This document shows, one piece after another, positions 1 through 20,707 of a stretch of DNA of 64,000 nt (the first letter of the stretch is position 1; each line of letters opens with the position of its first letter). Position numbers and translations under genes: made by a program. Source of the DNA: an uncultured Alphaproteobacteria bacterium (GTDB taxonomy: Bacteria > Pseudomonadota > Alphaproteobacteria > Methylaequorales > Methylaequoraceae); contig CACHGK010000002.1 in the NCBI GenBank assembly GCA_902579395.1, forward strand, positions 155,767 to 219,766, written 5' to 3'. The notes beneath the pieces were generated by a model, which did no database searches, was not told where the DNA came from, and saw nothing but the letters and a program-made list of their open reading frames with translations.

Positions 1-1
1 A

Positions 2-550: not shown

Positions 551-649
551 ACTCCATCACTCAAGAAATCTGATATAAGTTTTGATTTCTTAATAATATT
601 AATTAGTACCAAAAAAAAAACTATCTAGTAGAATTTAAAAATTAATCAA

Positions 650-4372: not shown

Positions 4373-4415
4373 ATTTTTATATGAAATAATTACTTAAAAA
4401 TTAGAGTAAAAAAAA

Positions 4416-5711
4416 ATGATACGAATCTTTAACAACTACAAATATATTTCTTTTTTTTGGGTTATATTTTCTTTTTATTTTATATTTCTGATGATTGGGC
4501 CTAGAGTTTCAGACGTTAATCAGGAGAATCTTTGTGTAAGAAATTTTAAAATAAATAATTTTCTTGGTCATAGTATGAACTGTGATTCAGCCGATTATAT
4601 GTTAAATGCTTCCAATCCAAAAAGATTATTAGAAGAAGACTCCGTTCGACAGGCACGACCAGGATTAATTGTAAATGCTTTCATATTTTCTTTTTTTATA
4701 GATAATTTTATTAGCTTATTTGGATATCAAAATGATTATCCAAAGATTACTATAATTGAAAATAGTGATAAAAAATATTCGGTTTTCGAAAACTTTAATC
4801 CTAAAATAGTGTATATTTCGTATTTCCTGATTAATTTAAAGTTTTTGCTACTCTCTATTTTTTTTTATTTTAAGCTTTTTAGAAAATCTATTTTTAATCC
4901 CCTTCATTATAAAGATTGGATAATTTGGCTTTCATTACTTCTAGTTATAAACAATGTTGTAAATCAATTCATGTGGTCACCATCAACAAAACTACTGAAT
5001 ATTTTTTGTAGTTTATACACAATTTATTTTTCTCGAGAAATAATACTCAAAGAATTAAGCTCAAAGCAAATCTTACTACTTAATTTAGTTTCAGGAATCT
5101 TAATTTTATATTACGCGGTATTTTTTATAAGTTTTGTTGTTATAAACTTATTTTATGTATTTTCATATAGAAAGCATTTACTTCTTATTATTGCGAGTAG
5201 CATCTGCTTTCTCACACCTTACATGTTATGGTATGGATATGTCGTGAGTTTAAATGGAAAATTCTATTTTTCAAACATTTCAGATTATAATTTTGTGATT
5301 TGGATTATAGATTCATTTAATAACTTTGGATTTTTTAAGACTGCAATTTTAATTCTCGAGGGATATTATTTCTTCTTTTCTTCTTTTTTATCTCAGTATT
5401 TTATATTTATTGCACTTATTTTCTTCATTCTGATTTTTTCAATAAAAAAGAAAATTTTTTATTTTAATAGCCCTGTTATCTTGAGCAGCACAATTTTCAT
5501 TTTTTTTTTTTCTAGCTTCTTTGTAATATTGGGTCATAAACCAATGAATATAACTGCATGTTTAATTGCACCTATTATAATTTTATTTTCAGAAATTCTT
5601 TTAACAAATCGGATTAATATGATTAACGAGAATTTTTTAAAAAAAACTTTTTTTATAATATTCCCTTTTTTTTATTTTTGGTCCTTGATTAAATTTGGTC
5701 CATATTCTTGA
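4416..5711 (+). CDS. Polytopic integral membrane protein (possible glycan polymerase/ligase or GT-C-like enzyme)
   Basis: 431 aa, with at least 10 hydrophobic segments and one larger loop near the N-terminus. It sits in the glycan cluster. No diagnostic motif was recognised. Confidence 0.45.
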   Translation: MIRIFNNYKYISFFWVIFSFYFIFLMIGPRVSDVNQENLCVRNFKINNFLGHSMNCDSADYMLNASNPKRLLEEDSVRQARPGLIVNAFIFSFFIDNFISLFGYQNDYPKITIIENSDKKYSVFENFNPKIVYISYFLINLKFLLLSIFFYFKLFRKSIFNPLHYKDWIIWLSLLLVINNVVNQFMWSPSTKLLNIFCSLYTIYFSREIILKELSSKQILLLNLVSGILILYYAVFFISFVVINLFYVFSYRKHLLLIIASSICFLTPYMLWYGYVVSLNGKFYFSNISDYNFVIWIIDSFNNFGFFKTAILILEGYYFFFSSFLSQYFIFIALIFFILIFSIKKKIFYFNSPVILSSTIFIFFFSSFFVILGHKPMNITACLIAPIIILFSEILLTNRINMINENFLKKTFFIIFPFFYFWSLIKFGPYS

Positions 5712-6756
5712 TTTCATGTTCAGCTATTTTATTAAGGATATCTTCCAGATTATATTTCAAACTCCAACTAGGATAATCATTTTTAAACTTTCTAAAGTCA
5801 CTTATCCACCAAATATGATCACCAACTCTATTTTGATTTTTGTAGTTATATTTTGTTTCGATATTGTAATTAGCTTTGAAAAAATTTATTACCTCAAGAA
5901 TTGAGCAACTATTTTTTCTTCCTCCTCCAATATTATAAATTTTTCCACATTTGGGATTTTTAAAATAACTCCAAAAACAATTCACCAAATCTTTACTGTG
6001 AATGTTATCTCTAACTTGCTTTCCCTTATAACCAAAAATATTATAAGCCTTTTTTCTAACTATAGATTTTACTATGTATGAAAGAAAACCGTGAAGCTCA
6101 ACTCCAGAATGATTTTCTCCAGTTAAACACCCACCTCTAAATGTCACAGTGTTAAGTTTAAAATATTTTCCAAACTCCTGAACATATAAATCTGCACTTA
6201 ACTTTGAAGCTCCAAAAAAAGAATGAGTGCAATTATCAATACTCAAAGACTCGTCAAATCCATGGGAGTAAAATTTATTTTTTGGCGAAATTTCAAATCT
6301 ATATTTTTTTTCAACAAATTCAAATTGATTAGGAATATCTCCATAAACTTTGTTAGTAGATAAATTTATAAAACATGCTTCGGGACAATAGTTTTTATAG
6401 GCATTTAAAAGTTGTACAGTTGAAATTGTATTAACTCTAAAATCTTCAATGATATTAGTTGTCGCCCAATCATGAGAGGGTTGAGCCGCACAATGAACAA
6501 TACATCTAATTTTGCTCCTGTATTTTGATAATAGATCTTCAATTTTTTTTTTATTTAAAATATTCAAAGATAAATGTTCATAGCTTTTGAATTCCAAGAG
6601 TTGATTAATATTTTTACTTACGCTTGCATCATGACCGAAAAACTTTTTTCTACTATCATTGTCTATTCCAATTACTTTAAAACCTTTATTCATAAAAAAA
6701 ATTGAGGTTTCCATCCCAATTAATCCTGCTGAACCTGTGACTAATGCAAATTTCAT
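5689..6756 (-). CDS. NAD-dependent sugar-nucleotide epimerase/dehydratase (extended SDR)
   Basis: N-terminal Rossmann motif LVTGSAGLIGMET; extended-SDR length; a S...Y-x-x-x-K-type segment (GASKLSADLY). Confidence 0.85.
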   Translation of the reverse strand: MKFALVTGSAGLIGMETSIFFMNKGFKVIGIDNDSRKKFFGHDASVSKNINQLLEFKSYEHLSLNILNKKKIEDLLSKYRSKIRCIVHCAAQPSHDWATTNIIEDFRVNTISTVQLLNAYKNYCPEACFINLSTNKVYGDIPNQFEFVEKKYRFEISPKNKFYSHGFDESLSIDNCTHSFFGASKLSADLYVQEFGKYFKLNTVTFRGGCLTGENHSGVELHGFLSYIVKSIVRKKAYNIFGYKGKQVRDNIHSKDLVNCFWSYFKNPKCGKIYNIGGGRKNSCSILEVINFFKANYNIETKYNYKNQNRVGDHIWWISDFRKFKNDYPSWSLKYNLEDILNKIAEHEIKNMDQI

Positions 6757-6821
6757 AATAAACTGATAGAATAAGTTAACTGCTACTTTATAATAACCTT
6801 TGTATTTTTTTTTAAAAGTAT

Positions 6822-8198
6822 ATGAATTATTTTGACTATTATAAAAAAAACTTCAGCAGAAGAATAAAATTTACAAAAAAATATTCATATGTTTACAGAA
6901 TTATTGCTGATGAAATAAATAAATATATGAGCAGTAACTCTCGAATATCTATCTATTGTGCAGGGCATTCAATAATTACAAACTACCTGAAATTTAAAAG
7001 CGCATATGTAGGAGAAATCATTGATGAATTTCTTTGTTTGTTTAAATTAAATAAAAATATTTTTAAGTTAAAGGAAAATAAAAAGGTTGATGAAGTTGTT
7101 GTCTGCGATCTTGAATATGCCTCAAATCCCGTTCAGAAAATGATAGATCTTAATAGACTACTTAATTCTGACGGTAAAGTTTATATTGTTAGTAATAATA
7201 TTTTTTGGAATCCTTTTTTTAAACTCCTAGAAATATTAAATCTAAAATTTAGGCATCCTAGAAAAAATCTGATTAGTTCAAATTTTATTGAAAATCTTTG
7301 TTTTTTAACTGATTTTAGAATTGTAAAAAAAAAAAGATTTTTATTATTTCCATTTAAAATTTTCTTTTTTAGCAGTCTGATGAATAATTTTTTTGCAAAG
7401 ATACCATTTATTAATTATTTTTGTTTGATTCAATTATTTGTTTTAAGATCAAATAATAAAGAAAAACTTTGTTTGGAAAATTTAAAAACCTCAATTATTG
7501 TCCCCTGTAAAAATGAAGAAAAGAATATTAATGCAATTGTTAAGTCAATAAAAAGAATTGGTTCATCAACAGAAATTTTATTCGGCGATGACAATTCCAG
7601 TGATAATACACTATCTGAAATAAAGAAGAATTTAGTTAAAACGAATGATTTAACAATAAAATATTATAAGGGTCCTGGAATATCAAAAGCAGAAAACGTT
7701 TATAAAGGCTTTAACCTAGCAAGTGGCGATATATTAATTATTCATGACGCAGACAATTGTGTTTCTTTTTCTGAATTAGATTTGATGGTAAGAACTTTAA
7801 TTGAAAAAAAATTAGAATTAGTTATTGGCACAAGGTTTATCTATCCAATGGAAGAAAAAGCAATGAGAAGTTTTAATTATTTTGGCAATATAATATTTTC
7901 TTATATTTTTTCTTTTTTATTGCAGCAAAAAATTACTGACACATTGTGCGGCACAAAAATACTTCATAAAAAAGATTGGTTAAAAATAAAAAAACAATGT
8001 GGTAGTTGGGGAATAAAAGACAAATGGGGAGATTTTGATTTACTCCTGGGTGCAAAGGCAAATTTTCTAAAATTAGCAGAAATACCAGTTAATTACAAAA
8101 AGAGAACCGAAGAAGAAAGTAAAATGACAAATGTTTTTTCTAATGGTCTAAGAATGTTAGTTATTTCGGTTATCTCATTTTTTAAATTAAGATTTTAA
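6822..8198 (+). CDS. Family 2 glycosyltransferase with an N-terminal methyltransferase-like extension
   Basis: The C-terminal half has GT2 blocks: SIIVPCKNEEKNI, FGDDNSSDNT, ILIIHDADN. The N-terminal ~210 aa look like a class I methyltransferase fold (LEYASNPVQKMIDLNRLLNSDGKVYIV) but have a degenerate G-x-G-x-G site. Confidence 0.75.
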   Translation: MNYFDYYKKNFSRRIKFTKKYSYVYRIIADEINKYMSSNSRISIYCAGHSIITNYLKFKSAYVGEIIDEFLCLFKLNKNIFKLKENKKVDEVVVCDLEYASNPVQKMIDLNRLLNSDGKVYIVSNNIFWNPFFKLLEILNLKFRHPRKNLISSNFIENLCFLTDFRIVKKKRFLLFPFKIFFFSSLMNNFFAKIPFINYFCLIQLFVLRSNNKEKLCLENLKTSIIVPCKNEEKNINAIVKSIKRIGSSTEILFGDDNSSDNTLSEIKKNLVKTNDLTIKYYKGPGISKAENVYKGFNLASGDILIIHDADNCVSFSELDLMVRTLIEKKLELVIGTRFIYPMEEKAMRSFNYFGNIIFSYIFSFLLQQKITDTLCGTKILHKKDWLKIKKQCGSWGIKDKWGDFDLLLGAKANFLKLAEIPVNYKKRTEEESKMTNVFSNGLRMLVISVISFFKLRF

Positions 8199-8203
8199 AA
8201 GTA

Positions 8204-8917
8204 ATGTTTAGTTATTTTTTTGAAAAAATTATTTTGTATTTAGATAATAAATCTCAAAATAACAATCTAAATTTTATAAAAAAAGTTTACGGTAGAAATC
8301 TGAACATAATCTTTGATATTGGTTGTCACGAAGGTGAGACGATAGATTTAATAAAAAAAAAATTTTGTTATAAGAAGATTTATGCATTTGATCCAAATAA
8401 AGATTTAGTAAATAAATTAATGACCAAGCATTGTGATGTTGATTTCATTAATAAAGCAGTAGGTGAAAAAAGATGTAAAAAAACTTATTTTAAATCTCAA
8501 TTTTCTGCAATAAATACTTTAAATAAAATAAATCAATCATCAGATTACTATCGAAAAAAAAGTAGAATAATCTCTCTTATTTATCCAAAAAAAAGCAAAA
8601 ATGTTAACAATCTAGTAGATGTAATTAGTTTAAAAGAATTTATGGGAGGGAAAAAAATAAAGTCTGTTGATTTAGTCAAAATTGATACTGAAGGTTATGA
8701 ATTTTTTGTTTTAAAAGGAATTGGAAACTATTTAAAGAATATAAAAATGATATTATTTGAACACCATTATGATAATTCATTATTAAAGAATTATAAATTT
8801 TCGGATATAAATTTTTTATTAGATAAAAATGGTTTTTATTTAGCTTATAAAAGTAAAATGATGATGAGAAATATCTTTGAATATATTTATCTAAATAGCA
8901 ATTATTTTAAAAAATAA
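8204..8917 (+). CDS. FkbM-family methyltransferase
   Basis: IIFDIGCHEGET (SAM motif I) and VKIDTEGYEFFVLKG are typical FkbM-family blocks. Confidence 0.75.
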   Translation: MFSYFFEKIILYLDNKSQNNNLNFIKKVYGRNLNIIFDIGCHEGETIDLIKKKFCYKKIYAFDPNKDLVNKLMTKHCDVDFINKAVGEKRCKKTYFKSQFSAINTLNKINQSSDYYRKKSRIISLIYPKKSKNVNNLVDVISLKEFMGGKKIKSVDLVKIDTEGYEFFVLKGIGNYLKNIKMILFEHHYDNSLLKNYKFSDINFLLDKNGFYLAYKSKMMMRNIFEYIYLNSNYFKK

Positions 8918-8979
8918 ATTTATTCAAATAATGTTACAATTCTTAAAAAATTTATATAAATTATAAATTAAATTATCTT

Positions 8980-9057
8980 GGTGGCTGTAGCTCAGTTGGT
9001 TAGAGCGCTGGTTTGTGGTACCGGAGGCCGGGGGTTCAAATCCCCTCAGCCACCCCA
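8980..9057 (+). tRNA. tRNA-His (anticodon GTG) with G-1 and encoded CCA
   Basis: Manual cloverleaf: G-1; acceptor GTGGCTG/CAGCCAC; D arm GCTC-AGTTGGTTA-GAGC; anticodon arm CTGGT-TTGTGGT-ACCGG; variable AGGCC; T arm GGGGG-TTCAAAT-CCCCT; discriminator C; CCA. Confidence 0.95.
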
Positions 9058-9086
9058 TTTAGTTTAGTTGTATCTTCATATATTAA

Positions 9087-10937
9087 CTACTCGGAAGTTA
9101 AAAATTGTCTAAAATCTTTATAAATGTCAGTAATTTCACCTGCCAAACCATATAGACCTTCAGTATTTTTATGACCTTTTTTTAGGTGATGAACAAAAGG
9201 GTTACAAATTAAAAATCTATGAGCATGTGTTGAGTTGTAACCTTTACTATCAAAATAAACATTATAATCCCTTGAACCTGTAACCCTCTCTTCTTTATTT
9301 AAAAAATATTGAATTGATAATTTTTCAATTTTTGTTAATTCGCAAAAAAGCTTATTTTGAGATATAACTTCATTATCTTTGATTACAAAAATTTTATAGT
9401 TTTTTAGTATTGTTGTCAGAGATTCTTTATCAAAAGAGATGTATTTTTGTAAAAGTCCACCATACCCATAATTATTTAATGAATTAACAAGAGAAATAAT
9501 TTTTACTTTTCGGAAAACTGAAAATATTTTTCTTAGAACAATATTGATATTTTTTATAAAATATTTTCTTTTGACATATATTAGGTCAGTTAAATCCAAT
9601 TGTTTATAACCAATTAATTGAATGGTTTTTTTTGAAAGATTTACAACATGATCTTTATTATTTTTATACCAACTTTCTGTTAAAATTTTTTCATTGTTAA
9701 TAAATTTATATAGACTAAAAATCCTTTTGTTATAAGTAAGTTTCTTTAACGATGAAAAAAAAAAGTTATAATACCTAAAATCAATAGAGGGGTGTTTTTC
9801 AAAAAGAATCTCAATGTTACCAAAAGAGTATAATAAAAAAAAGTTTTTCTCTTTTTGTTCATCAAATGCTATAGCAAAATCCAATAAAAAAAAAAAGAAA
9901 TTTTTTGGATAGATTTTTTTTGTAAAATTATTTGTAACCAACCAATTTGGAATTTCATTAGTTTTAATTGGAGTTTCTTTTAGAAGTTTGTTAAGCATTC
10001 TAAGTATATTTACAAAATTAAAATATTTTAAATTAATTTTAATTTTTTCTAATAATCTATCTTCGTACTGCCTCACCCTTTCTCTTGATAGTTCTTTAGT
10101 AAAATTGTATTGGTCTGGCTTTTTCCCAATTGAATCTAAAGTTCTTAGAGGATATTTATCATTGGGCATATACCTAGAAAAAAATATCTTGCTTTCAGTC
10201 TCAGATAATTTACTCGTTTTAATAAGATGTAAAATATCATCTTCAATATATTTAGAATCTATTGAAACTTTAGGATAAATTTTATTAAAATTTTGATTGT
10301 GATAATCTTCAAGTTCTTGTCTTGAGGGAATATTTCTTATTTTACTCCCAAATGATAATTCATAACCTGATAAAATAATTGAAAGTTTTGTAATTGTTTC
10401 AAACCCAACTTTAGGTATGCGATTTAAGTTTTCATAATCAAGTTGGATTAGATCCAATAAAAAGATGATTTCATTCGATTCTGAAATTCTTTTTATTTTT
10501 GCATCAAGAGTTATTTCAGATATTTTTTTTAATAGTATGTTTTTTTTTTTTTCTTCAATTTCTAAAAAAGTTTTATTAATGACGAACTTTTCGTCACAAA
10601 AAAGCTTTCCCAGATATGCTGAATTTTGTAATCTACCAATTTTTATATTTTCATCTTTAACTTTAATATTATTAATTCTTCTGTAAATGCCTATCATTGT
10701 CCCAAGTTCATAGATTTTAATGTTAAGAATTGATGAAACAATTGATTTATTCTTTCTTTTCTCTAAGAATAACTTATAAATTTCTCCTAATTCTTTTTCT
10801 AATATATTTTTATATTCTAATGCTAGATTTGAATTCCGATCTTTATTTTTGAGATATAAATTGGCATAGGTAGTAATATGTTTCAAAGGTATTTTCATAT
10901 AGAAACTTAAGTATATAAAAAATAAAAGAATTGACAA
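9087..10937 (-). CDS. Large hypothetical protein with a sigma-70 region-4-type helix-turn-helix
   Basis: The central segment LSETESKIFFSRYMPNDKYPLRTLDSIG...LSRERVRQYEDRLLEKIK matches the sigma70_r4 pattern (L-x-x-R-E-R...S-R-E-R-V-R-Q-x-E). A possible HhH-like NLNRIPKVGFETITKL lies upstream of it. The likelier start is MKIPLKH at 10898. The stop is 29 nt from the tRNA. Confidence 0.65.
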   Translation of the reverse strand: MSILLFFIYLSFYMKIPLKHITTYANLYLKNKDRNSNLALEYKNILEKELGEIYKLFLEKRKNKSIVSSILNIKIYELGTMIGIYRRINNIKVKDENIKIGRLQNSAYLGKLFCDEKFVINKTFLEIEEKKKNILLKKISEITLDAKIKRISESNEIIFLLDLIQLDYENLNRIPKVGFETITKLSIILSGYELSFGSKIRNIPSRQELEDYHNQNFNKIYPKVSIDSKYIEDDILHLIKTSKLSETESKIFFSRYMPNDKYPLRTLDSIGKKPDQYNFTKELSRERVRQYEDRLLEKIKINLKYFNFVNILRMLNKLLKETPIKTNEIPNWLVTNNFTKKIYPKNFFFFLLDFAIAFDEQKEKNFFLLYSFGNIEILFEKHPSIDFRYYNFFFSSLKKLTYNKRIFSLYKFINNEKILTESWYKNNKDHVVNLSKKTIQLIGYKQLDLTDLIYVKRKYFIKNINIVLRKIFSVFRKVKIISLVNSLNNYGYGGLLQKYISFDKESLTTILKNYKIFVIKDNEVISQNKLFCELTKIEKLSIQYFLNKEERVTGSRDYNVYFDSKGYNSTHAHRFLICNPFVHHLKKGHKNTEGLYGLAGEITDIYKDFRQFLTSE

Positions 10938-11117
10938 AGAAAATAAAACAATATAAATTTAAAATGGGTGATTAATAGCTACAACTATTAAACCTAGGAA
11001 ATTGAAGTTTTGATTAGTCTAATGGATTAATCATACTTAAAGAAGCAATTAATTTGGTTCTTTTGCGAAGTTGCCAGTCTCCTTATTGATTATTAATATT
11101 TAACAAAGGAGATAAAA

Positions 11118-13139
11118 ATGTCTTTTGATAATCAGATAAATTTAGTAAATAAAATTAAAAAGTCAGGTGAGTTAAAATTTTTTGGTACTCAATCTGCGTT
11201 TAAAAGTATGCAAAGCAATGCTTCGTATGATAATGAGGCTATGGCTATTAATGACTTAATTGACAACAGCTTAGATGCTCATGCATCTGAAGTTAACATA
11301 CTTCTAGTAACAGGAGCCGAAAGAACTCCTGATGATTACTCTATGCATGATTCTGGAAGAAAACGTGCTGATAGAGTTTCTGCAATTCTTGTTCAAGATA
11401 ATGGAACAGGTATGGCAGATGGCTTTACCCGTGCTGCAGTTGCTTACGGTTGGTCATCCAAAAAAGATAAAAAAACATTAGGTACATTTGGTTTTGGAAT
11501 TAAAAACGCCGGTATTGCATTTGGATCTAGGTTAGAAGTGTATTCTAAAAATAAAAATGGAAAATGGGAATTCTGTTACATTGATGTGAATGAATTTACT
11601 GATGAGAAACTAAGAGAATTAAAAGGTGAACCACCTCAAGCCATTGAGAAAAGTCCATCTGAGAAGTACCCTTTTTACAGTGAATATTTTGATAATTTAA
11701 AAACAGGAACAATAATTTCTCTGGAAAATCTTGATCCAGCAAAAATTAAATGGTCTACAACATCGAGTTTTAAAAAAAATGCTCTACAAGAAATAGCTAC
11801 AACATTTTATAAAAAAGCTGGAGATATTAGTTTGAATTTTGATGATGGAACTGGTCCTGAAAAAGTTGATTTTATAGATCCACTGTTTCAAACACCTACC
11901 TTAAGATATTTTAAGTGTAAACATCCTCAAACTGGAAGAGTAGATAATGAAAAGGTAAAAATATATAATTCTGTTACTTACCCAGTAATTGATAAGGTAA
12001 CAAAACAGTTGAGAGGTAACGTTGTCGCAAGATTTAGTCTTATGTCACCCACCTTTAATCATTATACTAAAGATCCTTCCTCTTCAAAAGAAAACCTAGC
12101 TAAGTTTAATAAAAATGATGATTATAATCCTCGTAATAAGGTTATGGCAGATCATAAAGGTATAGTAATTTGTAGAAATGGTAGAAAAATATTTATGCAA
12201 AACCATTTACCGGATATAGATATAGGAAATAATTATAGACAAGTAGGAATGGAACTAGACTTTGATGGTTCACTTGATGAGATTTTGGGATTAACCACTC
12301 AAAAAGATAAAGTTCGCTTTGGCAAAGAATTTTTTAATTTTTTGAGAGAAAAAGGTTTTATTGAAACAATAAGAGCTATTTATTCTGAAAGACAAAAACT
12401 TTTCTCAGAACACAGAGAAAAACTGGAAAAAATTAAATCCTCCAAAGACCCTAAAAAATCCTACGATCATACTCAAGTGGCAGCTATGAAAGCTGTTGAA
12501 GATGCAAGAAAAAAACCATCTGATGAAACTTTAAAACGTTTGAAAGAGATTGGAAAAGAAAATCTTGATTCTCAAGCTGAAAATATAGCTAGAGAAGCGG
12601 GTAAAGATAAATCAGATGTTCTAAAAGAGCTAAATAAAGAAACCAACGATGTTCCTTTTAATGTAAGAGAAAAACATCTCTCTAGAAGTGCAGACTTTAT
12701 TAACTTTGTAAGAGAGGGTGCAACGACTTGGCTTGAGTTTAATAAGGATCATATTTATTGGGAAAAGTTAGAGGGAAATCCTACTATTTCAGGTGATGCC
12801 AGGCAATATATGCATTTTGTTTTCTACGCCTTTTACCAGGCTTTAATTACCAGAGAAACAATTAATAAAGGAGAAGTAGATAAATTTATTCTGGATTCAA
12901 ATTTCTTTTTTAATTTAATGAAAGACTGGAGTGAACATATGCATTCATTATTTGAAAGTTTAAGTCAGGTTAAACAATCTGTTGACAATGATTCTTCAAT
13001 CACTCTTGAAGAAATTACTCAGCAGCGAATAAAAGATGAAATGTATAAAAAAAAACTACTTAAATCTAAACAAAAAGATAATCAAGATAAGAGTTCAAAA
13101 ACTGTTGAAGATTATTTAGAGGATGGTTTATTAAATTAA
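11118..13139 (+). CDS. MORC-like GHKL (Bergerat-fold) ATPase, HATPase_c_3-type
   Basis: Strong SD (AAAGGAGATAAAAATG). Ordered ATP-binding motifs are INDLIDNSLDAHA (N box), VQDNGTGM (G1) and GTFGFGIKNAG (G2). The long charged C-terminal half is probably coiled-coil. Confidence 0.8.
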   Translation: MSFDNQINLVNKIKKSGELKFFGTQSAFKSMQSNASYDNEAMAINDLIDNSLDAHASEVNILLVTGAERTPDDYSMHDSGRKRADRVSAILVQDNGTGMADGFTRAAVAYGWSSKKDKKTLGTFGFGIKNAGIAFGSRLEVYSKNKNGKWEFCYIDVNEFTDEKLRELKGEPPQAIEKSPSEKYPFYSEYFDNLKTGTIISLENLDPAKIKWSTTSSFKKNALQEIATTFYKKAGDISLNFDDGTGPEKVDFIDPLFQTPTLRYFKCKHPQTGRVDNEKVKIYNSVTYPVIDKVTKQLRGNVVARFSLMSPTFNHYTKDPSSSKENLAKFNKNDDYNPRNKVMADHKGIVICRNGRKIFMQNHLPDIDIGNNYRQVGMELDFDGSLDEILGLTTQKDKVRFGKEFFNFLREKGFIETIRAIYSERQKLFSEHREKLEKIKSSKDPKKSYDHTQVAAMKAVEDARKKPSDETLKRLKEIGKENLDSQAENIAREAGKDKSDVLKELNKETNDVPFNVREKHLSRSADFINFVREGATTWLEFNKDHIYWEKLEGNPTISGDARQYMHFVFYAFYQALITRETINKGEVDKFILDSNFFFNLMKDWSEHMHSLFESLSQVKQSVDNDSSITLEEITQQRIKDEMYKKKLLKSKQKDNQDKSSKTVEDYLEDGLLN

Positions 13140-13158
13140 ATCTTTATAAATCAATTTT

Positions 13159-13186
13159 TACTCACGGTAAAAAATTACCGTGAGTA
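13159..13186 (+). promoter_or_regulatory. Perfect 12-bp stem / 4-nt loop hairpin between cassette genes 2 and 3, covering the GTG start of gene 3
   Basis: TACTCACGGTAA-AAAA-TTACCGTGAGTA. The GTG at 13180-13182 lies in the 3' arm. An in-frame TAA at 13168-13170 prevents an earlier start. Confidence 0.5.
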
Positions 13187-15102
13187 TTAATATTAAAAAA
13201 GTTAAATCAAAAATTTTAGGAAACGAATTTGATTACGCTCATAACATTGCTTATGACTACATAGGTTATGAGGGAGAAGAGTATGTTCATAAAGATTTAA
13301 AAATTTTTAAAGATTCTTACAATTCAATTTTACAAAGATATAAAAAATTAACTGAATATGAAAAAATATATTTAAAAACTTTATTTCAATTATTTGTGAA
13401 TTACCTTGAAATGAATTGGGTTATAAAACTATCAAAAAATAAATCTTTTGAATGCTTCCCCAAAAAAAGGTTAACAAAAAAATCAATTCAAATTAACCTT
13501 AGAAAATCAAAACAACGTAATATAAGAAAATACACCAACTTAATTTCAACTGTTCAAAGTCCAAAAAGTAAACCAAATAAAACAATTTTTGAAATTATTT
13601 CATCAGGAGAAGAATTATACAAAAATTTTCAGAAATTAAAAAAACTACCTGAAAATGAAAGAGTTTTAAATCTAAGTAAGTTGATTCAACCCAAAGTTTT
13701 TTTAGCTGATCAGTCAATTGATAAAATTACTGGAAATAAACTTTCAGATATTTGGACTTATCTACGCTTGTACTGGACAATACCATTTGAATCAACACCT
13801 GGAAGAACAATGCCTTTCATCATAAGAAATATGGCATTCGAAAATATGCCAATTATAGGAATTGGAATGTTAGCAAGTCCAGTATTAAGGTTGACTGTAA
13901 GAGATAGTTGGATAGGTTGGAATTTGGAGGCATTACATAAAAAACTTTTTGAAGAGAAATACAATCCATCAGAGATTATTGATTTGTTTTATTCAGTTCT
14001 ATTTAAGCATATAGATAATACATATTATGAGGATCTGCCATTAAATGAGAAAATTATAAATAAACCAACAATTGAAAATATTGTTGCAGTTGAGAAAATA
14101 GTTAAAATCAGTGAAAAGGAAAGACAATTTGATATTATAAACAAAAATTCTATTTACAAGGAAAAGCCTGACTTGTTAAATATGAGTAATGATGAAATTC
14201 TTGCATGGACAAAAAGACCTTTATATAAAAAAAAAAGATCAAGTAAACTTTCTAAAATTTTAGAGATTTTAAGAATATTTGAACAATTTAAATTAAAAGA
14301 AAATCCAAAAAACTTATTTATAATGTTAAAAGTTGATTTTGGAAAATCAGCTATTTCATATGTTTTAGATTTAATCAGGGTTGATGGATTGTCTAGCGAA
14401 GTTGCTGATTTGTCTATTTGTGGTGCAATACCTCCGTATAATGAAATTTTATGTGGAAAATTAACATGTCTGATAAGTGGTTCACAAGAAATTCAAGAAA
14501 TGTATAAAAAGAGATATGAGAATACAATATCAGAAATTTCAACCTTTACAGCTGGAAAGGCAATATTTAGGGATGTAAATTTAAAAGTTTTAACAACAAC
14601 AAGTTTGTATGGAAGATCTAGTCAATACAATAGGATTAAAATTTTGAAAAATAAAGAGAATAGCCTTAAAAATGATTTAATTTGGAATCATCTTGGATCC
14701 ACTAGAGGTTACGGTGTATTTCACTTTGATGAAAAAACAACAGAATTATTGCAAACAGTTTATGAAATTAAAAATGGTTACAGAAATGTAAATAGTGTTT
14801 TTGGTGAAGGCACAAGTCCAAAACTTAGAAAAATTAGAGATGGTTTGTCAATTTTCAAAATTGACGGCGATACTGGAATAAAGCATGGTCAAGTCAGAGA
14901 TTCTTATGCAACTGAGTTGTTTGATTTTGCTAGAGAAGAGTTAATATTTAAAACGCTCCGTAATTCTAGAAATTCAAAGGATTCTATTAAAAATATTACA
15001 GATTGTTGGATTAAAAGATGGTTGGTAAGAAGAATTGAAAATGAAGAAGTAATGCAAAGATTAAAATATTCAGGAAAATCTAAAATTATTGAGAATATTT
15101 AG
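13180..15102 (+). CDS. DUF4338 (DruA-like) domain protein, enlarged
   Basis: PGRTMPFIIRN...GMLASPVLRLTVRDSWIGWN, then ADLSICGAIPPYNEILCGKL...VLTTTSLYGRSSQYNRI...WNHLGSTRGYG. These match my memory of the DUF4338 blocks (G-x-x-L-R-Y...R-D-x-W-I-G-W...N-N-S-R-F-L-I-L-P...E-T-F-V-D...G-x-T-x-G). Confidence 0.65.
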   Translation: MSINIKKVKSKILGNEFDYAHNIAYDYIGYEGEEYVHKDLKIFKDSYNSILQRYKKLTEYEKIYLKTLFQLFVNYLEMNWVIKLSKNKSFECFPKKRLTKKSIQINLRKSKQRNIRKYTNLISTVQSPKSKPNKTIFEIISSGEELYKNFQKLKKLPENERVLNLSKLIQPKVFLADQSIDKITGNKLSDIWTYLRLYWTIPFESTPGRTMPFIIRNMAFENMPIIGIGMLASPVLRLTVRDSWIGWNLEALHKKLFEEKYNPSEIIDLFYSVLFKHIDNTYYEDLPLNEKIINKPTIENIVAVEKIVKISEKERQFDIINKNSIYKEKPDLLNMSNDEILAWTKRPLYKKKRSSKLSKILEILRIFEQFKLKENPKNLFIMLKVDFGKSAISYVLDLIRVDGLSSEVADLSICGAIPPYNEILCGKLTCLISGSQEIQEMYKKRYENTISEISTFTAGKAIFRDVNLKVLTTTSLYGRSSQYNRIKILKNKENSLKNDLIWNHLGSTRGYGVFHFDEKTTELLQTVYEIKNGYRNVNSVFGEGTSPKLRKIRDGLSIFKIDGDTGIKHGQVRDSYATELFDFAREELIFKTLRNSRNSKDSIKNITDCWIKRWLVRRIENEEVMQRLKYSGKSKIIENI

Positions 15103-15646
15103 AGTTGTTAATTTTTCTAAATCTGAAAATTAATAATAATTAGTTTCTGGAAACTATATAAAAAGGTTATATTTTAAATTTTACCGTTTTGTTAATAATG
15201 AAAAAAACTTTCCTTTCAACTTTTGGGCATTAGTTCTATTCAATGCACTAAAAGTTTTTCTATTTTTTTTATTGTACAATACATTTTTTTTAAATTTTAT
15301 AACAAATTCAAGTTTCATTTATGGAATCAAATATAGTTTTGTTTATATGGTATTATCGATTCCTATTTCATTAATTATTTACCTAAACCCATTAGAATTT
15401 TTAACAATTATTTATAACACAATTGAAAAAATAACTGATTGGTTATTGCTAAAATGTATTCTTTTTTTTATAAGAAAATAAATGAAAATAAGATTAATTT
15501 AATAATCTCTAAAAATAAAATTTTTTCACAATATATGATTATGTACAAAAAAGTTAATAAATGGTGTATTTTTAGTTATAAAAAAATAATATATAGAGTA
15601 GTCTAGAAATTCGTTAAAATATAGGGTTTATGGGGGTATCATCAGT

Positions 15647-15693
15647 TTTGTGGTACCGGATGTCGGGGGTTCAAATCCCCTCAGCCACCCCAT
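15647..15693 (+). repeat. Direct repeat of the tRNA-His 3' half (att-like), 45/47 identical
   Basis: Aligns to 9012-9058. The only differences are in the variable loop (AGGCC becomes ATGTC). The upstream sequence cannot form the 5' half of a tRNA. Confidence 0.85.
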
Positions 15694-15694
15694 T

Positions 15695-16201
15695 TTATTT
15701 TGTTGAGATTGTATAAAATGTTTCGGTATTTCCAGCGGAGTAGCCTGTTTCAGGGTTAAATTCTGTTTGTCCTTTACCATAACCAATTACTCCTTTGTAG
15801 ACCCCAGTCCCTCCCGTTATTGTAATTGTAGTATTAACAAGACCATTTTTACTAACGTCCTCTGGAGTTTGAGCAACACCATCAACTCGAGAGAAGATTT
15901 TACTACCATCGTCGTAAATCCCAATTGAATAACCTGTTACTTTTCCATTCTTATTAATGTAGTCGCTAATACCATAAAAATCTGTCTTGATTATCTTTAG
16001 ACCCTCACAATTTTTTTTTGATTTTTTATGATTGGTTTCTGTTTTGAAAATTCTTATTACATGACCTTCGATGTCATCAACTTTTATAGATTTCTGAATA
16101 GTGTATTTAACTTCATCATTTGAAGTTGAATTTTTAAATTTGCATGATGCATTAAGATTAAAACAAAACAACAGAATGATAAAAAGAAGTATAGAATTCA
16201 T
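15695..16201 (-). CDS. Small secreted hypothetical protein (beta-rich, possibly dirigent/AOC-barrel-like)
   Basis: Signal-like N-terminus MNSILLFIILLFCFNLNA. ITGGTGVYKG recalls the G-G-T-G-x-F/Y-x-G block of dirigent/allene-oxide-cyclase-like barrels (weak). It is the sole ORF of the second att-bounded segment. Confidence 0.5.
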   Translation of the reverse strand: MNSILLFIILLFCFNLNASCKFKNSTSNDEVKYTIQKSIKVDDIEGHVIRIFKTETNHKKSKKNCEGLKIIKTDFYGISDYINKNGKVTGYSIGIYDDGSKIFSRVDGVAQTPEDVSKNGLVNTTITITGGTGVYKGVIGYGKGQTEFNPETGYSAGNTETFYTISTK

Positions 16202-16284
16202 TCAACTATTATTACTGTACAAAAACATTTTACAAGAAGTTTGTATATATTATTATAGAATTAATAAGTTCAAATTTTAATTGT

Positions 16285-16330
16285 TTTGTGCTATTGGATG
16301 TCATGGGTTCAAATCCCCTCAGCGGCATTA
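16285..16330 (+). repeat. Degenerate direct repeat of the tRNA-His 3' half (att-like relic)
   Basis: Manual alignment to 9012-9057 gives about 12 mismatches in 46 nt. The T-arm core GGGTTCAAATCCCCTCAGC is intact. It shares the ATGTC variable-loop variant with the 15647 copy. Confidence 0.7.
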
Positions 16331-16349
16331 TTTGTTTTAAAGTTGATTT

Positions 16350-17177
16350 ATGAAAATTGAAAAATTTAATTTGGATGATGGAACTTACATCAGATTTAAA
16401 AAAATAGGAAAAGGGAAGCCTATCCTGTTACTTCACACTTTCAGAAATAGACTAGAATATTCTGACAAACTAGGTGAATTATTAAGAAATAAATTTACAG
16501 TATATTCAATTGACCTTCCAGGTTTTGGTGATTCTCCGATCAACACAGCAACAAATTATAGTCTTGATTTTTTTACTAAATCAATAGTAAGTTTTGTGCA
16601 AAAGTTAAAGATTAAAAATCTTACAGTCGCTGGAGAATCCATAGGAGCAAACTTAGGAGCTAGCTTATCAGTTGAACTTCCAAAAATAGTAAAAAAAATA
16701 TATATGTTTAATCCTTATGACTACGATTCATATTTTGGTGAAGGAATTCAAAGAGGTAATTTTTTTGCAAAATTTATTTTGTTTCATGTTGGCTTGCCAG
16801 TTATTGGAAATTTATTTTCAAGTTTAGAGAATAAATTTATTTTAAAAAATATTATGAATGGTGGGTTTTTTGATAATACTAAACTTCCAGATAGCTATTT
16901 AAATTTATTGTGTAATTCTCTGAAAAAAAAGGGGTATATCTATCATTTCAGAAATGTACTATCACAATTCAACAAAGATAATGGAATTAAAAAGGTTTAT
17001 GAAAAAGTCAATGTTCCTGTAAAACTTATTTATGGAAAAGATGATTGGGCTAAAGAATCAGATAGATTGCTTACAAAAAATTTATTAAAACTTAGTAAGT
17101 ATGAAATAATAAACGATTCTAGTCATTTTTCTTTTTTAGAAAATACTGATAAAGTTGAAGAAATCATCAAATCATAA
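16350..17177 (+). CDS. Alpha/beta-fold hydrolase
   Basis: PILLLHTF (oxyanion region), nucleophile elbow GESIGAN, C-terminal DSSHF (His). It is the sole ORF of the third att-bounded segment. Confidence 0.8.
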   Translation: MKIEKFNLDDGTYIRFKKIGKGKPILLLHTFRNRLEYSDKLGELLRNKFTVYSIDLPGFGDSPINTATNYSLDFFTKSIVSFVQKLKIKNLTVAGESIGANLGASLSVELPKIVKKIYMFNPYDYDSYFGEGIQRGNFFAKFILFHVGLPVIGNLFSSLENKFILKNIMNGGFFDNTKLPDSYLNLLCNSLKKKGYIYHFRNVLSQFNKDNGIKKVYEKVNVPVKLIYGKDDWAKESDRLLTKNLLKLSKYEIINDSSHFSFLENTDKVEEIIKS

Positions 17178-17190
17178 CAAAAGACATTAA

Positions 17191-17238
17191 GTTTGTGGTA
17201 CCGGAGGCCGGGGGTTCAAATCCCCTCAGCCACCCCAT
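17191..17238 (+). repeat. Exact 48-nt direct repeat of the tRNA-His 3' half (distal island boundary, attR-like)
   Basis: Identical to 9011-9058 (GTTTGTGGTACCGGAGGCCGGGGGTTCAAATCCCCTCAGCCACCCCAT). Confidence 0.9.
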
Positions 17239-17262
17239 CTGAATGAAACTAATAGAAATATT

Positions 17263-18075
17263 TTACTGACAACTTTCTATATCTACTTTTGTGTCTAAAA
17301 ATTCATCTCCATTATAATTAGTTTTTACACCTTTAATCATAGAGGCATCTTCAAAGTCAAATCCTGTGCTTATTCTTATATATTTATCGTCAATACATTT
17401 TTTATGAGATGGATCAAATGCCACCCAACCCAAATCCTTTATAAAAATTTCTGCCCAGGCATGAGAAGTATTTTCACCAGAAGTAGTTTCTTCCAACAAA
17501 AAACCATTAACATATCTAGCAGGAAATTGATTAAACCTTGCAGCACTAATAAGTATGTGTGCAAAATCTTGACAAACTCCTTTTTTTTGCTTTAAAGCAT
17601 CCTTTGAACACGTAGAAGTTGTGGTTGATCCACTTACGTATTTAATTGAGTTTGATACTATTAAATTTAGTTTATGTACAAATTCAATATAATTCTTATT
17701 ATTATTTTTTTTTGCTTCAGATGAAATTTTTTCAATATTTTTACAGGGTTTCGTTAAATCAGTTTCTCTCAGAAAACAAAGTGGATGAACTTTTTCCTTC
17801 AATCCTTTGACAATACCAGATAAATCTTTGGTTTTTAATATTCCTTGTGAGGTGATTTTAAGTTGTCCACTAAAATTCTTTATAAAAATATTCTGTACTC
17901 TGTGTCCTAGTCCATCAAAGTGAGATTCAATTATTTTTCCGTTACTGGTAGATGTTTCCCAGTCTAATATTTCTTGATTATCGCATATTGATGGATAGAG
18001 TTTTAAACATTGTATAAGCCTTGGTACTGTGGAACTGTATTTATAAGTTGTTGAGTGTTTGATTTTAATTTTCAT
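17263..18075 (-). CDS. Transglutaminase-like cysteine peptidase family protein
   Basis: GVCQDFAHILISAARFNQFPARYVNGF...HAWAEIF...WVAFDPS supplies the Cys-His-Asp transglutaminase core blocks. Confidence 0.85.
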   Translation of the reverse strand: MKIKIKHSTTYKYSSTVPRLIQCLKLYPSICDNQEILDWETSTSNGKIIESHFDGLGHRVQNIFIKNFSGQLKITSQGILKTKDLSGIVKGLKEKVHPLCFLRETDLTKPCKNIEKISSEAKKNNNKNYIEFVHKLNLIVSNSIKYVSGSTTTSTCSKDALKQKKGVCQDFAHILISAARFNQFPARYVNGFLLEETTSGENTSHAWAEIFIKDLGWVAFDPSHKKCIDDKYIRISTGFDFEDASMIKGVKTNYNGDEFLDTKVDIESCQ

Positions 18076-19031
18076 GTCTCTAGACCAAAAAAGTATTTCT
18101 GTTCAAATTTTTTGTAAACAAAATTTATTTCTTCAATAAAGGATTTTAAAAATTCATGTAAACCAATTTCTGTGATTTTATTAGCATTTAAATTTTTTAT
18201 ATTTTTATACATCAGTCCTATTTTTTTGTTTGAAGTCGAGGTTTGTTTATAAAATTTTGACAACCTTCCTAAATGATGATTAATTTTTTCTATTGAAAAA
18301 ATTAAAGATCTTGGGCAAGTCATATTCAGAATTAAAAAATCTATGATTTTGGTGTATGTAATTTCTTGTCCACCATATGCCCACTTAAATGCCCTGAATG
18401 ATGAAATTGACCTTAACATCAAACTCCATTGAAAATTATCAATGTCACTGCCAACATAATTGATACTTGGAAGTAAAATAAAATATTTTACGTTAATAAT
18501 TCTTGCAGTAAAATCTGCTCTTTCAAAATAAGTTCCTAATATTAAAAAATCATAGCCATCATTTATTAGTTGGGTGTTAAGTATTGTACCTCTTATTAAA
18601 TTTACTTGTCTTTTTATCCATTCAATAATTTCGGGTAATTCTTTTAAGATACTTTTAGTATCTTTCATATTTTTGTCTAATTCGTGATATGACGAATTAA
18701 CTGCATTCCATACTTCGAGTGTTACAGCAGTTCTGACCATTCTAATATTTTCTCTTGCAGTTTTTATACAGTTTTTAACTGAAGAAGAGTTTTCAGGGTC
18801 AAAAAGTAGATAGAAAATAATTTTTTCTTTAGATATTTTTTTATATTTTTTAAGATATTCATCTTTTATTCCAGAAGTTTCTAGAATTGATTCCCATTCG
18901 TTTGTATAACCTCTTTCAGTATTGGGAATCAAAGAAATTCTGTAACCAACCTCTAAAAGTCTAGCTAATGAATCAGCTCGCTCAATATATCTAGCTGACC
19001 AAAATAAATTTTCTGCGGTTCTACTTAACAT
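18072..19031 (-). CDS. Alpha-E domain protein (DUF403 type)
   Basis: The N-terminus MLSRTAENLFWSARYIERADSLARLL is the hallmark of alpha-E proteins. It overlaps the neighbouring gene by 4 nt. Confidence 0.85.
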   Translation of the reverse strand: MLSRTAENLFWSARYIERADSLARLLEVGYRISLIPNTERGYTNEWESILETSGIKDEYLKKYKKISKEKIIFYLLFDPENSSSVKNCIKTARENIRMVRTAVTLEVWNAVNSSYHELDKNMKDTKSILKELPEIIEWIKRQVNLIRGTILNTQLINDGYDFLILGTYFERADFTARIINVKYFILLPSINYVGSDIDNFQWSLMLRSISSFRAFKWAYGGQEITYTKIIDFLILNMTCPRSLIFSIEKINHHLGRLSKFYKQTSTSNKKIGLMYKNIKNLNANKITEIGLHEFLKSFIEEINFVYKKFEQKYFFGLET

Positions 19032-19036
19032 ATTAA

Positions 19037-20443
19037 TTATTCATTTAGGATCCATGTATCTTTAACCCCTCCACCTTGAGATGAATTAACCACTAATGAA
19101 CCCTTATTCAAAGCCACCCTTGTTAGTCCACCATCAACTAATTTTGTTTTATTTGCACCAACTAAACAAAATGGTCTAAGATCAACGTGTCTTGGAGATA
19201 ATTTCTTTTTATCAAAGATGGGTACTGAGGATAATTCGAGTATGGGTTGGGCTATATAGTTTTCTGGGTTTAAAAGAATTTTTTTCCTAAAAATTTCAAT
19301 TTCTTTTTTTGAAGATCTACTTCCAATTAATAAACCATAACCTCCAGAGCCATGAACCTCTTTAACAACTAATTTATTTAAATTATTTATAACGTATTTT
19401 TTTGCATCATCTTCATAGCACCTCCACGTTTTAACATTTTCTAGAATAGGTTCTTCTCCTAGATAAAATTTAATTATATCAGGTATATAAGAGTAAATAG
19501 CTTTATCATCAGCTATACCTGAACCTGGAGCTGAACAAATATTTACATTACCAGACTTGTACGAATCAAATAAACCAGGAATTCCAATTAGTGATGAACT
19601 ATCAAAAGTGATTGGATCAATAAATTTATCATCAATCCTTCTATAAATTATGTCCACTTTTTCTGGACCCCGAGTTGTTTTCATATATGTTATCGAATCA
19701 TTAACAAAAAGATCAGTTCCTTGAACTAACTCAACTCCCATAAGATCAGCGAGAAAACTATGCTCATAATAAGCACTATTAAAAGAGCCAGGAGTTAAAA
19801 TCACTACTTTTGGTTCTTTATTACATTTTTTTGGGGCTAGACTTTTTAAAACATCTAACAAATAACTCGGATAATTTTCTACTGTTTCAATTTTCAATTT
19901 CTCAAATAATTCTGGAAACATTCTCATCATTATTTCTCTATTTTCGATCATATATGAAACTCCAGACGGAGTTCGACAATTATCCTCTAGAACTTTAAAA
20001 ATATTTTCATTAATTCTTACTATATCTGATCCAATTATTGGGCTATAGATTCTTTTGGGAACCTTAAAACCAATCATTTTAATTTCATATGCTGGGTTTT
20101 TATAAATTAAATTTTCTGGTATTAATTTTGCTTTTATAATTTCGCCAGAATTATAAATGTCATTAAGAAAAGCATTAATAGCTAATGCTCTTTGAATAAC
20201 CCCTTTTTTAATTCTTTTCCATTCTATTGAGGAAATTATCCTTGGAAACATGTCAAATGGAATTAAACGCTCTGAAGAATCAAAGTTATTATAAACGGAA
20301 AATGTTATACCTATCTTTTTAAAGAGATTTTCAGCCTCATTTTTTTTTTTTACAATCACATTTTCGGGCAAAGACTTAGCCCAATCATATATTTGATTAT
20401 AAAATTTTCTTACTTTTGAGTTTTTATAAACTTCGTTGTACAT
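19037..20443 (-). CDS. Circularly permuted type-2 ATP-grasp protein
   Basis: 468 aa with a conserved C-terminus (...GGLTRVAL..GSLVVNSSQGGGVKDTW). It sits in the known ATP-grasp / alpha-E / transglutaminase gene triad. Confidence 0.8.
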   Translation of the reverse strand: MYNEVYKNSKVRKFYNQIYDWAKSLPENVIVKKKNEAENLFKKIGITFSVYNNFDSSERLIPFDMFPRIISSIEWKRIKKGVIQRALAINAFLNDIYNSGEIIKAKLIPENLIYKNPAYEIKMIGFKVPKRIYSPIIGSDIVRINENIFKVLEDNCRTPSGVSYMIENREIMMRMFPELFEKLKIETVENYPSYLLDVLKSLAPKKCNKEPKVVILTPGSFNSAYYEHSFLADLMGVELVQGTDLFVNDSITYMKTTRGPEKVDIIYRRIDDKFIDPITFDSSSLIGIPGLFDSYKSGNVNICSAPGSGIADDKAIYSYIPDIIKFYLGEEPILENVKTWRCYEDDAKKYVINNLNKLVVKEVHGSGGYGLLIGSRSSKKEIEIFRKKILLNPENYIAQPILELSSVPIFDKKKLSPRHVDLRPFCLVGANKTKLVDGGLTRVALNKGSLVVNSSQGGGVKDTWILNE

Positions 20444-20707
20444 TTTATTTAACTTGTAAGCGGAGTAGTAAGAGACAGATGGATGCGTTCCTTCGGCTTC
20501 AAACCTACTTCCGACCTCAAGGGTTGAACGTATATTAAAGATTATAACTAATAATTTTCTAAATCAAGATTTATTTGTTTTGTTTTACAGGCTAGAGTTT
20601 TTAAATTTACTAAACCACCCTCTGCTTATTATTTAATTTAATTCCGATATGTAATCGATTTTTAAAATTTCGATTGCTTTTGAAGGTCAAATGATTAGAT
20701 TTTCATA

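Follow-up and report, generated by a model that had tools for sequence, protein, structure and literature searches.

A probable tRNA-His-anchored genomic island in an uncultured marine alphaproteobacterium and a temperate phage family carrying the matching attachment site

Background

In the genome of an uncultured alphaproteobacterium (assembly GCA_902579395.1), the gene for tRNA-His is followed within 8.2 kb by three partial copies of its own 3' half, with cargo genes lying between them. We have analysed this locus in a 64,000-nucleotide (nt) stretch of contig CACHGK010000002.1 (forward-strand positions 155,767 to 219,766), which is referred to below as the window and whose own coordinates are used throughout. 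The nearest relatives of the genes to the right of the locus are found in single amplified genomes (SAGs) and metagenome-assembled genomes (MAGs) labelled Alphaproteobacteria or 'Rickettsiales'. Among them are AG-892-F10 and MED715, which belong to the order TMED127, proposed as 'Methylaequorales' and composed of small-genome, uncultured marine methylotrophs (bioRxiv 10.1101/2025.06.11.659106). Streamlined ocean bacteria maintain large flexible gene pools and almost never carry integrases or mobile elements, and the way in which their genomic islands are built is debated.

Results

The tRNA-His locus and its partial copies

The locus was searched by repeat finding and by a fuzzy scan for the 3' half of tRNA-His. 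The tRNA-derived features, here called attachment-site (att) copies, together with one adjoining feature of phage origin, are as follows.

8981-9057, plus strand: intact tRNA-His(GTG) (ARAGORN; Rfam RF00005, 67.6 bits)
From 9011, plus strand: 3' part of tRNA-His, attachment site (attL core)
15542-15645, plus strand: phage-derived relic of an attP left arm (P arm), next to att copy 2 (blastn)
15646-15693, plus strand: att copy 2, attR scar, with the ATGTC variable-loop allele
16284-16330, plus strand: att copy 3, decayed, with 13 of 47 positions mismatched
17191-17238, plus strand: att copy 4, same as 9011-9058; outer edge of the polymorphic 8.2 kb array

The first-pass annotation of this DNA had described one exact, one ATGTC-type and one decayed copy behind the tRNA, and ARAGORN, Rfam and the repeat scans bear this out. 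Positions 9011-9058 and 17191-17238 match at 48 of 48 nt, the identity running one flanking base past the tRNA. The copy at 15647-15693 departs from the tRNA-His 3' half only at two variable-loop bases (AGGCC to ATGTC); counted from 9011, the corresponding stretch 15646-15692 has three mismatches, two of them in the variable loop. The copy at 16284-16330 keeps ATGTC despite its 13 mismatches. Start to start, the four tRNA-His 3' halves are spaced by 6635, 638 and 907 nt. The left edge of every copy corresponds to 9011/9012, in the 5' strand of the anticodon stem (stem strand 9008-9012, loop 9013-9019, anticodon 9015-9017), which agrees with the earlier placement of the edge in the anticodon loop or stem; the 5' half of the tRNA is absent from all copies, 22-23 of the 30 upstream bases being different.

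When the 77-nt tRNA was compared with the whole window by a Smith-Waterman scan, the copies scored 82, 44 and 94, against a maximum of 20 for shuffled sequence, and no further copy was detected anywhere in the 64 kb. The scan likewise detected in the window no decayed att copy past the ATP-grasp operon of the right flank, where relatives have one (L002, L005, L006, L013 and L019 in our numbering of the compared loci). The repeats are derived from tRNA-His, are restricted to this locus and form no dispersed family. That they might be a dispersed family, or chance similarities unrelated to tRNA-His, is an idea we have therefore dropped as having practically no chance of being correct, since all copies lie downstream of tRNA-His and nowhere else and are in register with the 3' half of the gene, since the partial copies of related genomes are confined to the same island, and since the scores lie far above those of shuffled sequence.

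An empty site in a near-identical cell

The outer repeats could also be examined in a second cell. Exact-protein look-up of a flank gene retrieved one contig, CABYTC010000036.1 (L001), from the SAG GCA_902521775.1, in which the empty site suggested by the first-pass annotation is found. The first 144 nt of this contig are identical (100%) to window positions 8915-9058 and lead straight into 17239-20804, and in the part aligned with window 17191-20804 only 3 of 3614 nt are mismatched (99.92% identity). The junction 9058|17239 is an exact empty site at the outer repeats; it does not by itself reveal the enzyme, the direction of the change or a circular intermediate. L001 represents another cell of the same population, because it differs at 3 of 3614 bases and because both the window's own genome and the island proteins are absent from the collection that holds GCA_902521775.1, in which the four island proteins tested have no record and the flank proteins are recorded. 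The 8.2 kb array is thus present in one and absent from the other of two near-identical cells, and the difference falls exactly at the identical outer 48-nt repeats.

A phage family with the matching attP and integrase

Viral contigs were scanned with an allele-neutral 3' end of tRNA-His, and three contigs of one phage were found to carry the tRNA-His 3' half in its ATGTC variant. As had been anticipated, this attP-like site lies near an integrase: it is located (L056:5199-5246) about 430 nt upstream of the gene for a 378-amino-acid (aa) tyrosine integrase (L056:5681-6817; Pfam 6.7e-10; PHROG integrase 1.2e-38), with small ORFs, candidate excisionase genes, between site and integrase gene, and no full tRNA is present in these phage contigs. 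The arrangement is that of an attP. On one side the site is bordered by genes for a DUF7483 tail-fibre-like protein and a PD-(D/E)XK endonuclease-like protein, on the other by ERF and a repressor, and related phage contigs also have an M15 peptidase and SSB in the corresponding positions. Integrases 61% and 57% identical to this one were found in metagenome contigs that share its gene order and have a tRNA-His 3' half at the corresponding position, so that each of three integrase lineages (100%, 61% and 57% identical) has an adjoining tRNA-His 3' half. On the left, identity to the tRNA reaches 1-6 nt further 5' in the phage copies than in those of the window. Among 50,697 deposited phage records, no integrase is more than 26% identical to the one described here.

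The phage family (L055-L081) has about 32% G+C and the gene order tail fibre DUF7483, M15 peptidase, attP, integrase, SSB, ERF and repressor. Its contigs include IMGVR_UViG_3300023178_000140 (35.7 kb) and Ga0255743_10000463 (35.9 kb); the latter carries the attP region at both ends (at least 236 nt, 3 mismatches), consistent with a complete genome. The motif AGTAGTGTA recurs in the arms of the phage site, with three copies in the left arm and two inverted copies in the right arm, and these repeats are plausibly arm-type integrase sites. TMED127/'Methylaequorales' is predicted as the host of this uncultured temperate family, because the attP and the 3' half of tRNA-His in TMED127 genomes have the same sequence; the literature searched yielded no phage literature on TMED127.

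Traces of such a phage are also seen in the window itself. In blastn comparisons of phage contigs L057, L059, L075 and L079-81 with the window, 155 nt comprising arm and att (15542-15693) are 85-86% identical, with E values down to 5e-44. In this alignment about 105 nt to the left of the 15646 copy correspond to the left arm of the phage attP, and homology stops at the tRNA 3' end. This is how an attR is built, and the copy is therefore a genuine attR scar. Beyond 15542-15695 and the att cores, neither blastn nor tblastx found any similarity between the phage loci and the window, and no phage gene lies between the att sites. Together with the attP and integrase of the phages, these features identify the three partial tRNA copies as attachment-site scars of tyrosine-integrase integrations.

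The first-pass annotation had further distinguished elements with two att sequence types. The two alleles are real; they need not represent two kinds of element, however, as they are natural variable-loop alleles of tRNA-His. In the tRNA-His genes of related hosts the variable loop reads AGGCC, ATGTC or GAAGGCC, and the ATGTC-type 3' half, which the window matches from 15647 on just as it matches the phage attP, occurs in L002, L006, L008, L009, L012, L014, L016 and L019. Within one phage lineage with identical arms, the attP variable loop reads ATGTC or GAAGGTC (L078-L081 vs L056). Because the types are thus seen both in real tRNA-His genes and within the attP of a single phage lineage, they are better understood as donor or host alleles, and the variation among phage attP sites may be a record of host exchange or of host-range adaptation. 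The viral scan found only ATGTC-type phage contigs and no attP of the AGGCC type.

The island in related genomes

Twenty related loci were oriented by the transglutaminase-like gene situated behind the last repeat, and the distance from the 3' end of tRNA-His to that gene was used as the metric. tRNA-His lies within 10 kb of this gene in 13 related loci, with inserts of 25 nt to 6.0 kb, compared with 8.2 kb in the window. Four of them are empty, and in the other nine the inserts are 1.2-6.0 kb of other cassettes.

About 25 nt, empty arrangement: L002, L006, L012, L016 (four related species)
1.2 kb: L009
2.0 kb: L014
2.2 kb: L013
3.9 kb: L005
4.4 kb: L018
5.1 kb: L015
5.2 kb: L008
6.0 kb: L019

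The inserts consist of differing combinations of small cassettes, many of which are separated by partial tRNA-His copies, in accordance with the different segment combinations that had been expected of related genomes. About 20 island gene families of the relatives were scanned with Pfam and proved to be ordinary cargo, including PhoD and PhoA phosphatases, an MFS transporter, methyltransferases, a periplasmic binding protein, a HAD hydrolase and an amylase-family enzyme. The relatives also encode a DNA photolyase, in the wider variable region and not between the tRNA and the flank gene.

The cassette with a 168-aa gene, which forms segment 2 of the window, was found in 10 loci. The stop codon of this gene is 2 nt from a tRNA-His 3' end in the window and in L008, L013, L014, L015 and L018. 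The cassette is kept from att to att in the window, L014 and L013, the latter two of which have, to the right of the gene, an att copy equivalent to 16284-16330; the sequence beyond differs. In L014 the 168-aa gene precedes a gene of family F33 and in L013 it follows F33, a reversal which implies independent acquisitions rather than inheritance alone. Homologues of the segment 3 hydrolase, about 80% identical, occupy differing positions in L003, L004, L008, L011, L015, L019 and L047, and in L011 and L047 they are followed by an att copy.

The ATP-grasp operon of the right flank is enclosed in L005 by an exact pair of tRNA-His 3' halves (original coordinates 7452-7498 and 14709-14755), decayed tRNA-His copies are found on its far side in L002, L006, L013 and L019, and genomes differ in where it lies with respect to the photolyase and hydrolase cassettes. 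Since the operon is bracketed by tRNA-His 3' halves in relatives and shifts its position, the variable region extends well past 17238.

L015 has a second, near-full-length tRNA-His inside its island (6668-6714 plus upstream sequence, original coordinates), with 5 mismatches and no ARAGORN call. In L010 (10833-10879) and L020 (569-615) a decayed full-length tRNA-His-like sequence stands beside the flank gene, and no intact tRNA-His was found within 10 kb. The tRNA-His gene itself has evidently been duplicated or displaced at this locus in relatives, as these sequences suggest.

Cargo genes and flanks of the island

The genes lying between the att copies of the window, and those that follow the last copy, are listed below.

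9059-15645: segment 1, 6.6 kb, 26% G+C, unique to this genome among those compared
9087-10937, minus strand: 616-aa orphan, predicted DNA-binding protein with an RpoA-CTD-like (C-terminal domain) helix-hairpin-helix and a sigma-70 region-4-like helix-turn-helix (HTH)
11118-13139, plus strand: HATPase_c_3 protein (GHKL/MORC-type ATPase), first gene of a recurrent pair (Pfam PF13589, 1.2e-17)
13180-15102, plus strand: DruA/DUF4338 protein, candidate defence gene without DruB-E (PADLOC DruA 5.9e-123; Pfam PF14236 5.4e-31)
15695-16201, minus strand: 168-aa protein, segment 2 cargo (family F5), function unassigned (no Pfam, PADLOC or PHROGs match)
16350-17177, plus strand: alpha/beta hydrolase, segment 3 cargo (family F13; Pfam PF00561, 8.2e-17)
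17263-18075, minus strand: transglutaminase-like protein, right flank (Pfam)
18072-19031, minus strand: Alpha-E protein, right flank (Pfam)
19037-20443, minus strand: circularly permuted ATP-grasp protein, right flank (Pfam)
20482-20532, minus strand: glutamine riboswitch (Rfam RF01739, 52.3 bits), upstream of the ATP-grasp / Alpha-E / transglutaminase-like operon

That no segment encodes a recombinase had been concluded from the open reading frames (ORFs), and the searches agree. Pfam, PADLOC and PHROGs scans found none in the five island ORFs. A custom tyrosine-recombinase hidden Markov model (HMM), built from 14 integrases and scoring a positive-control integrase at 9e-15, found none in the six-frame ORFs of the window or in the 37 loci searched, of which 35 are related host loci, the control alone giving a score, and Pfam found no integrase among the approximately 20 island gene families of the relatives. 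A replication module (primase, helicase or polymerase) is likewise absent from the island ORFs.

The three segment 1 proteins have no homologue in the 21 closest related loci (L001-L021 and L047). The 616-aa protein has no Pfam, PADLOC or PHROGs match and retrieved no homologue in a word-based search of 5.8 billion proteins. Its residues 134-206 have PDB matches to the C-terminal domain of the RNA polymerase alpha subunit, and an exhaustive HMMER search identified distant RpoA-CTD and sigma-70 region-4 relatives at 21-28% identity; nearer matches are metagenome fragments at 94-97% identity and one partial sequence at 44%. All 10 relatives scanned with Pfam contain RpoA-CTD-like repeats, and most contain the sigma-70 region-4 HTH. 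A single-sequence AlphaFold model was uninformative (pLDDT 34). The ORF had also been considered as a hidden recombinase, a candidate dropped because it has no domain-library match and only RpoA-CTD and sigma-70 region-4 distant relatives. The protein may be a regulator of the neighbouring HATPase and DruA pair.

The DruA/DUF4338 protein has 527 homologues, the best about 35% identical. As DruA is alone, with no DruB, DruC, DruD or DruE helicase, assignment to a full Druantia (type I) system was rejected. The pairing of HATPase_c_3 with DruA, without other Druantia genes, recurs in two alphaproteobacterial MAGs (L082:7542-11977 and L083:907-4708), and the L082 copy is situated inside an integrative element with tRNA-Gly, integrase, AlpA and Prim-Pol. 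The two genes are likely a candidate two-gene defence module borne by integrative elements.

On the right flank, the glutamine riboswitch implies control of the ATP-grasp operon by nitrogen status. On the left, window positions 1-8917 hold a low-G+C (21-27%) sugar-modification cluster with an epimerase-like ORF (recognised by eye only), a GT2 glycosyltransferase and an FkbM methyltransferase. Homologues in the related loci are limited to one of its 8 ORFs. Where tRNA-His is intact, most relatives have the conserved families F11, F6, F7, F8 and F9 in this place, and all metagenome contigs bearing the methyltransferase stop near the tRNA. The cluster resembles a replacement-type envelope island that borders directly on tRNA-His.

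Discussion

Origin of the array and alternative explanations

We consider it quite probable that integrase-mediated integrations built this locus as an additive genomic island anchored at tRNA-His, and that the integrase modules have since been lost. Its position at the tRNA side is constant, genomes differ by the addition of cassettes, and partial tRNA repeats stand at cassette borders. Each crossover would be placed in the anticodon loop, and Williams reportedly described, in 2002, integration from the anticodon loop onward. With every integration the tRNA would be rebuilt from the copy of the element, and the old 3' half and everything behind it would be pushed downstream; the integrase-bearing parts would later be deleted, leaving cargo cassettes and scars. 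The first-pass annotation had proposed serial integrations at one tRNA. The site-specific scars fit this proposal; a strictly serial history in place fits poorly, since it would make the outermost copy the oldest, yet that copy is perfect and the inner one at 16284 is decayed. With crossover in the anticodon loop the distal copy would be the recipient's own tRNA 3' end, which explains its perfection. In the latest event, a composite of segment 1, a scar, the 168-aa cassette, a second scar and the hydrolase would have entered or left an empty tRNA-His in the form of a single circle. The inner scars would be old and carried inside this composite, and the 8.2 kb would either have been integrated into an empty AGGCC-type tRNA-His or have been excised, with the L001 form as the result. 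Phage defence would be the role of the HATPase and DruA pair, the newest cargo. The agent of the latest event may have been the integrase of an infecting or resident phage acting in trans, or RecA acting on the 48-nt repeats, and between these two the sequence cannot decide.

Several observations weigh against such an origin. Two of the three scars have no recognisable phage arm, and in the arm of the third the putative arm-site motifs (AGTAGTGTA) are degenerate, so that current mobilisability by the integrase is unproven. Beside the intact tRNA-His of the window no phage right arm was found. The lysogen (attL) junction, in which a full tRNA is joined to the phage right arm, was absent from the viral contigs and from one metagenome scan, which used the right arm of the L056 type only; the six metagenome matches to the tRNA 3' end plus phage right arm all have the attP configuration. 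Viral contigs contain no close relatives of DruA, HATPase, the 168-aa protein or the hydrolase, and the notion that the cassette genes are phage morons was dropped on that ground. RecA recombination between the repeats would yield the same 9058|17239 junction as an integrase. It is conceivable that the scars are old and inert and that the islands gain, lose and shuffle cassettes by homologous recombination only, with RecA exchange of incoming DNA via the tRNA, the 47-48-nt repeats and the conserved flank genes. The integrase-free state of some 20 related islands and the degenerate motifs of the sole recognisable relic would agree with this, as would the changes in relative order of cassettes such as the hydrolase, photolyase and ATP-grasp operon at places without any detectable att copy; homologous recombination has also been invoked for island exchange in SAR11 and HIMB59 (PMC11796062; PMC10734472). 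Recombination alone is nevertheless unlikely, in our estimate, because the boundary of the array at the empty site and those of the 168-aa cassette fall exactly at att copies, because phages have a matching attP and integrase and the window an arm relic, so that at least some events were site-specific, and because 47 nt is a short substrate for RecA.

The empty site itself could be false if L001, which comes from one amplified single-cell genome, were a multiple-displacement-amplification chimera or a misassembly in which the assembler jumped over the 48-nt repeat, in which case the array would be a fixed, immobile relic. Amplification chimeras arise at short repeats, and L001 is a short contig (3.7 kb) with only 96 nt to the left of the repeat. 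An artefact of this kind is very improbable given that the differences at 3 of 3614 bases make L001 another cell, that the four island proteins tested are unrecorded and the flank proteins recorded in the collection with that assembly, and that the same empty arrangement is seen independently in four related species. The integrase-built island is thus the reading that we retain. We advance a wider proposal only tentatively and hold it to be rather doubtful: the att-bounded cassettes without integrase, among them that of the 168-aa gene (0.64 kb) and, in L005, the ATP-grasp operon between exact repeats, might form an integron-like pool for an order lacking mobile elements of its own, from which the tyrosine integrase of infecting temperate tRNA-His phages would excise, circularise and re-insert single cassettes or composites in trans at tRNA-His, so that phage infection would drive the shuffling and exchange of cassettes in TMED127 populations.

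Comparison with known systems

Islands of this type are already known in marine bacteria, and what is new here is the host order, TMED127. For these abundant, uncultured methylotrophs, the island repeat can be tied to the attachment site of an identifiable temperate phage family, in a chain of evidence which is unusually complete, comprising the att site, the phage attP with its integrase, the arm relic and the clonal empty site. With a defined integrase, attP and substrates, the question of integrase in trans versus homologous recombination becomes testable. By-products are a host prediction for an unassigned marine phage family and the flagging of the HATPase and DruA pair as a candidate defence module.

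The closest counterparts are the SAR11 gMED islands GI-20/30/50/58, in which a partial repeat of the boundary tRNA is present and integrases are almost absent (PMC11796062), and fGI-2 of the Methylophilaceae, where the last 20 bp of tRNA-Lys recur (PMC10872708). The likeness comprises a tRNA hotspot, partial repeats of the same tRNA at cassette insertions, the near absence of integrases, the lack of canonical mobile elements, and small metabolic, stress or defence cassettes, photolyases included. The present locus differs in its TMED127 host and, as far as these accounts were consulted, in that its repeats are tied to a specific phage attP and integrase family, an arm is kept at one scar and a near-clonal empty site is documented.

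The first-pass annotation had likened the array to the tycheposons of Prochlorococcus, whose islands consist of tandem segments split only by partial tRNAs, interpreted as the outcome of successive integrations in which older elements are pushed inward (Hackl et al., bioRxiv 10.1101/2020.12.28.424599), and contain scattered degraded remnants, extra partial tRNAs and cargo for nutrient acquisition and defence (bioRxiv 10.1101/2020.12.28.424599). The likeness holds as an analogy, namely in the full-length tRNA and partial copy as flanks and in the tandem array split by partial tRNAs. What defines tycheposons, however, is a site-specific integrase of their own, either a tyrosine recombinase of the largely monophyletic tycheposon clade or a large serine recombinase, to which a replication module is usually added (bioRxiv 10.1101/2020.12.28.424599). 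Both modules are missing here and in about 20 related islands, the linked integrase is found in phages only, and the host is alphaproteobacterial; membership among the tycheposons was dropped for the absence of the two modules.

Temperate integration into the 3' part of tRNA genes is known from HTVC019P-type pelagiphages (bioRxiv 10.1101/410191). As in tRNA-integrating phages, the attP found here corresponds to the 3' part of the tRNA, beginning in the anticodon stem, and stands beside a tyrosine integrase; integration would regenerate the tRNA and leave a partial copy at the far end. The window differs in that it contains no prophage and an arm relic of only about 105 nt: of a prophage remnant, the attR (left arm and att core) is present, and the attL right arm, integrase, ERF, SSB, tail and lysis genes are not. 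Integron arrays share with the locus short, promoter-poor single-gene cassettes, a repeated recombination site and an order that varies between relatives. They differ in that the site here is a tRNA 3' half and not attC, that a resident integrase and attI are missing, and that cassette-by-cassette mobility is not demonstrated. Assignment to the integrons was rejected because there is no IntI and the repeats are tRNA 3' halves. The locus stands closest to the tRNA-anchored islands of SAR11 and the Methylophilaceae.

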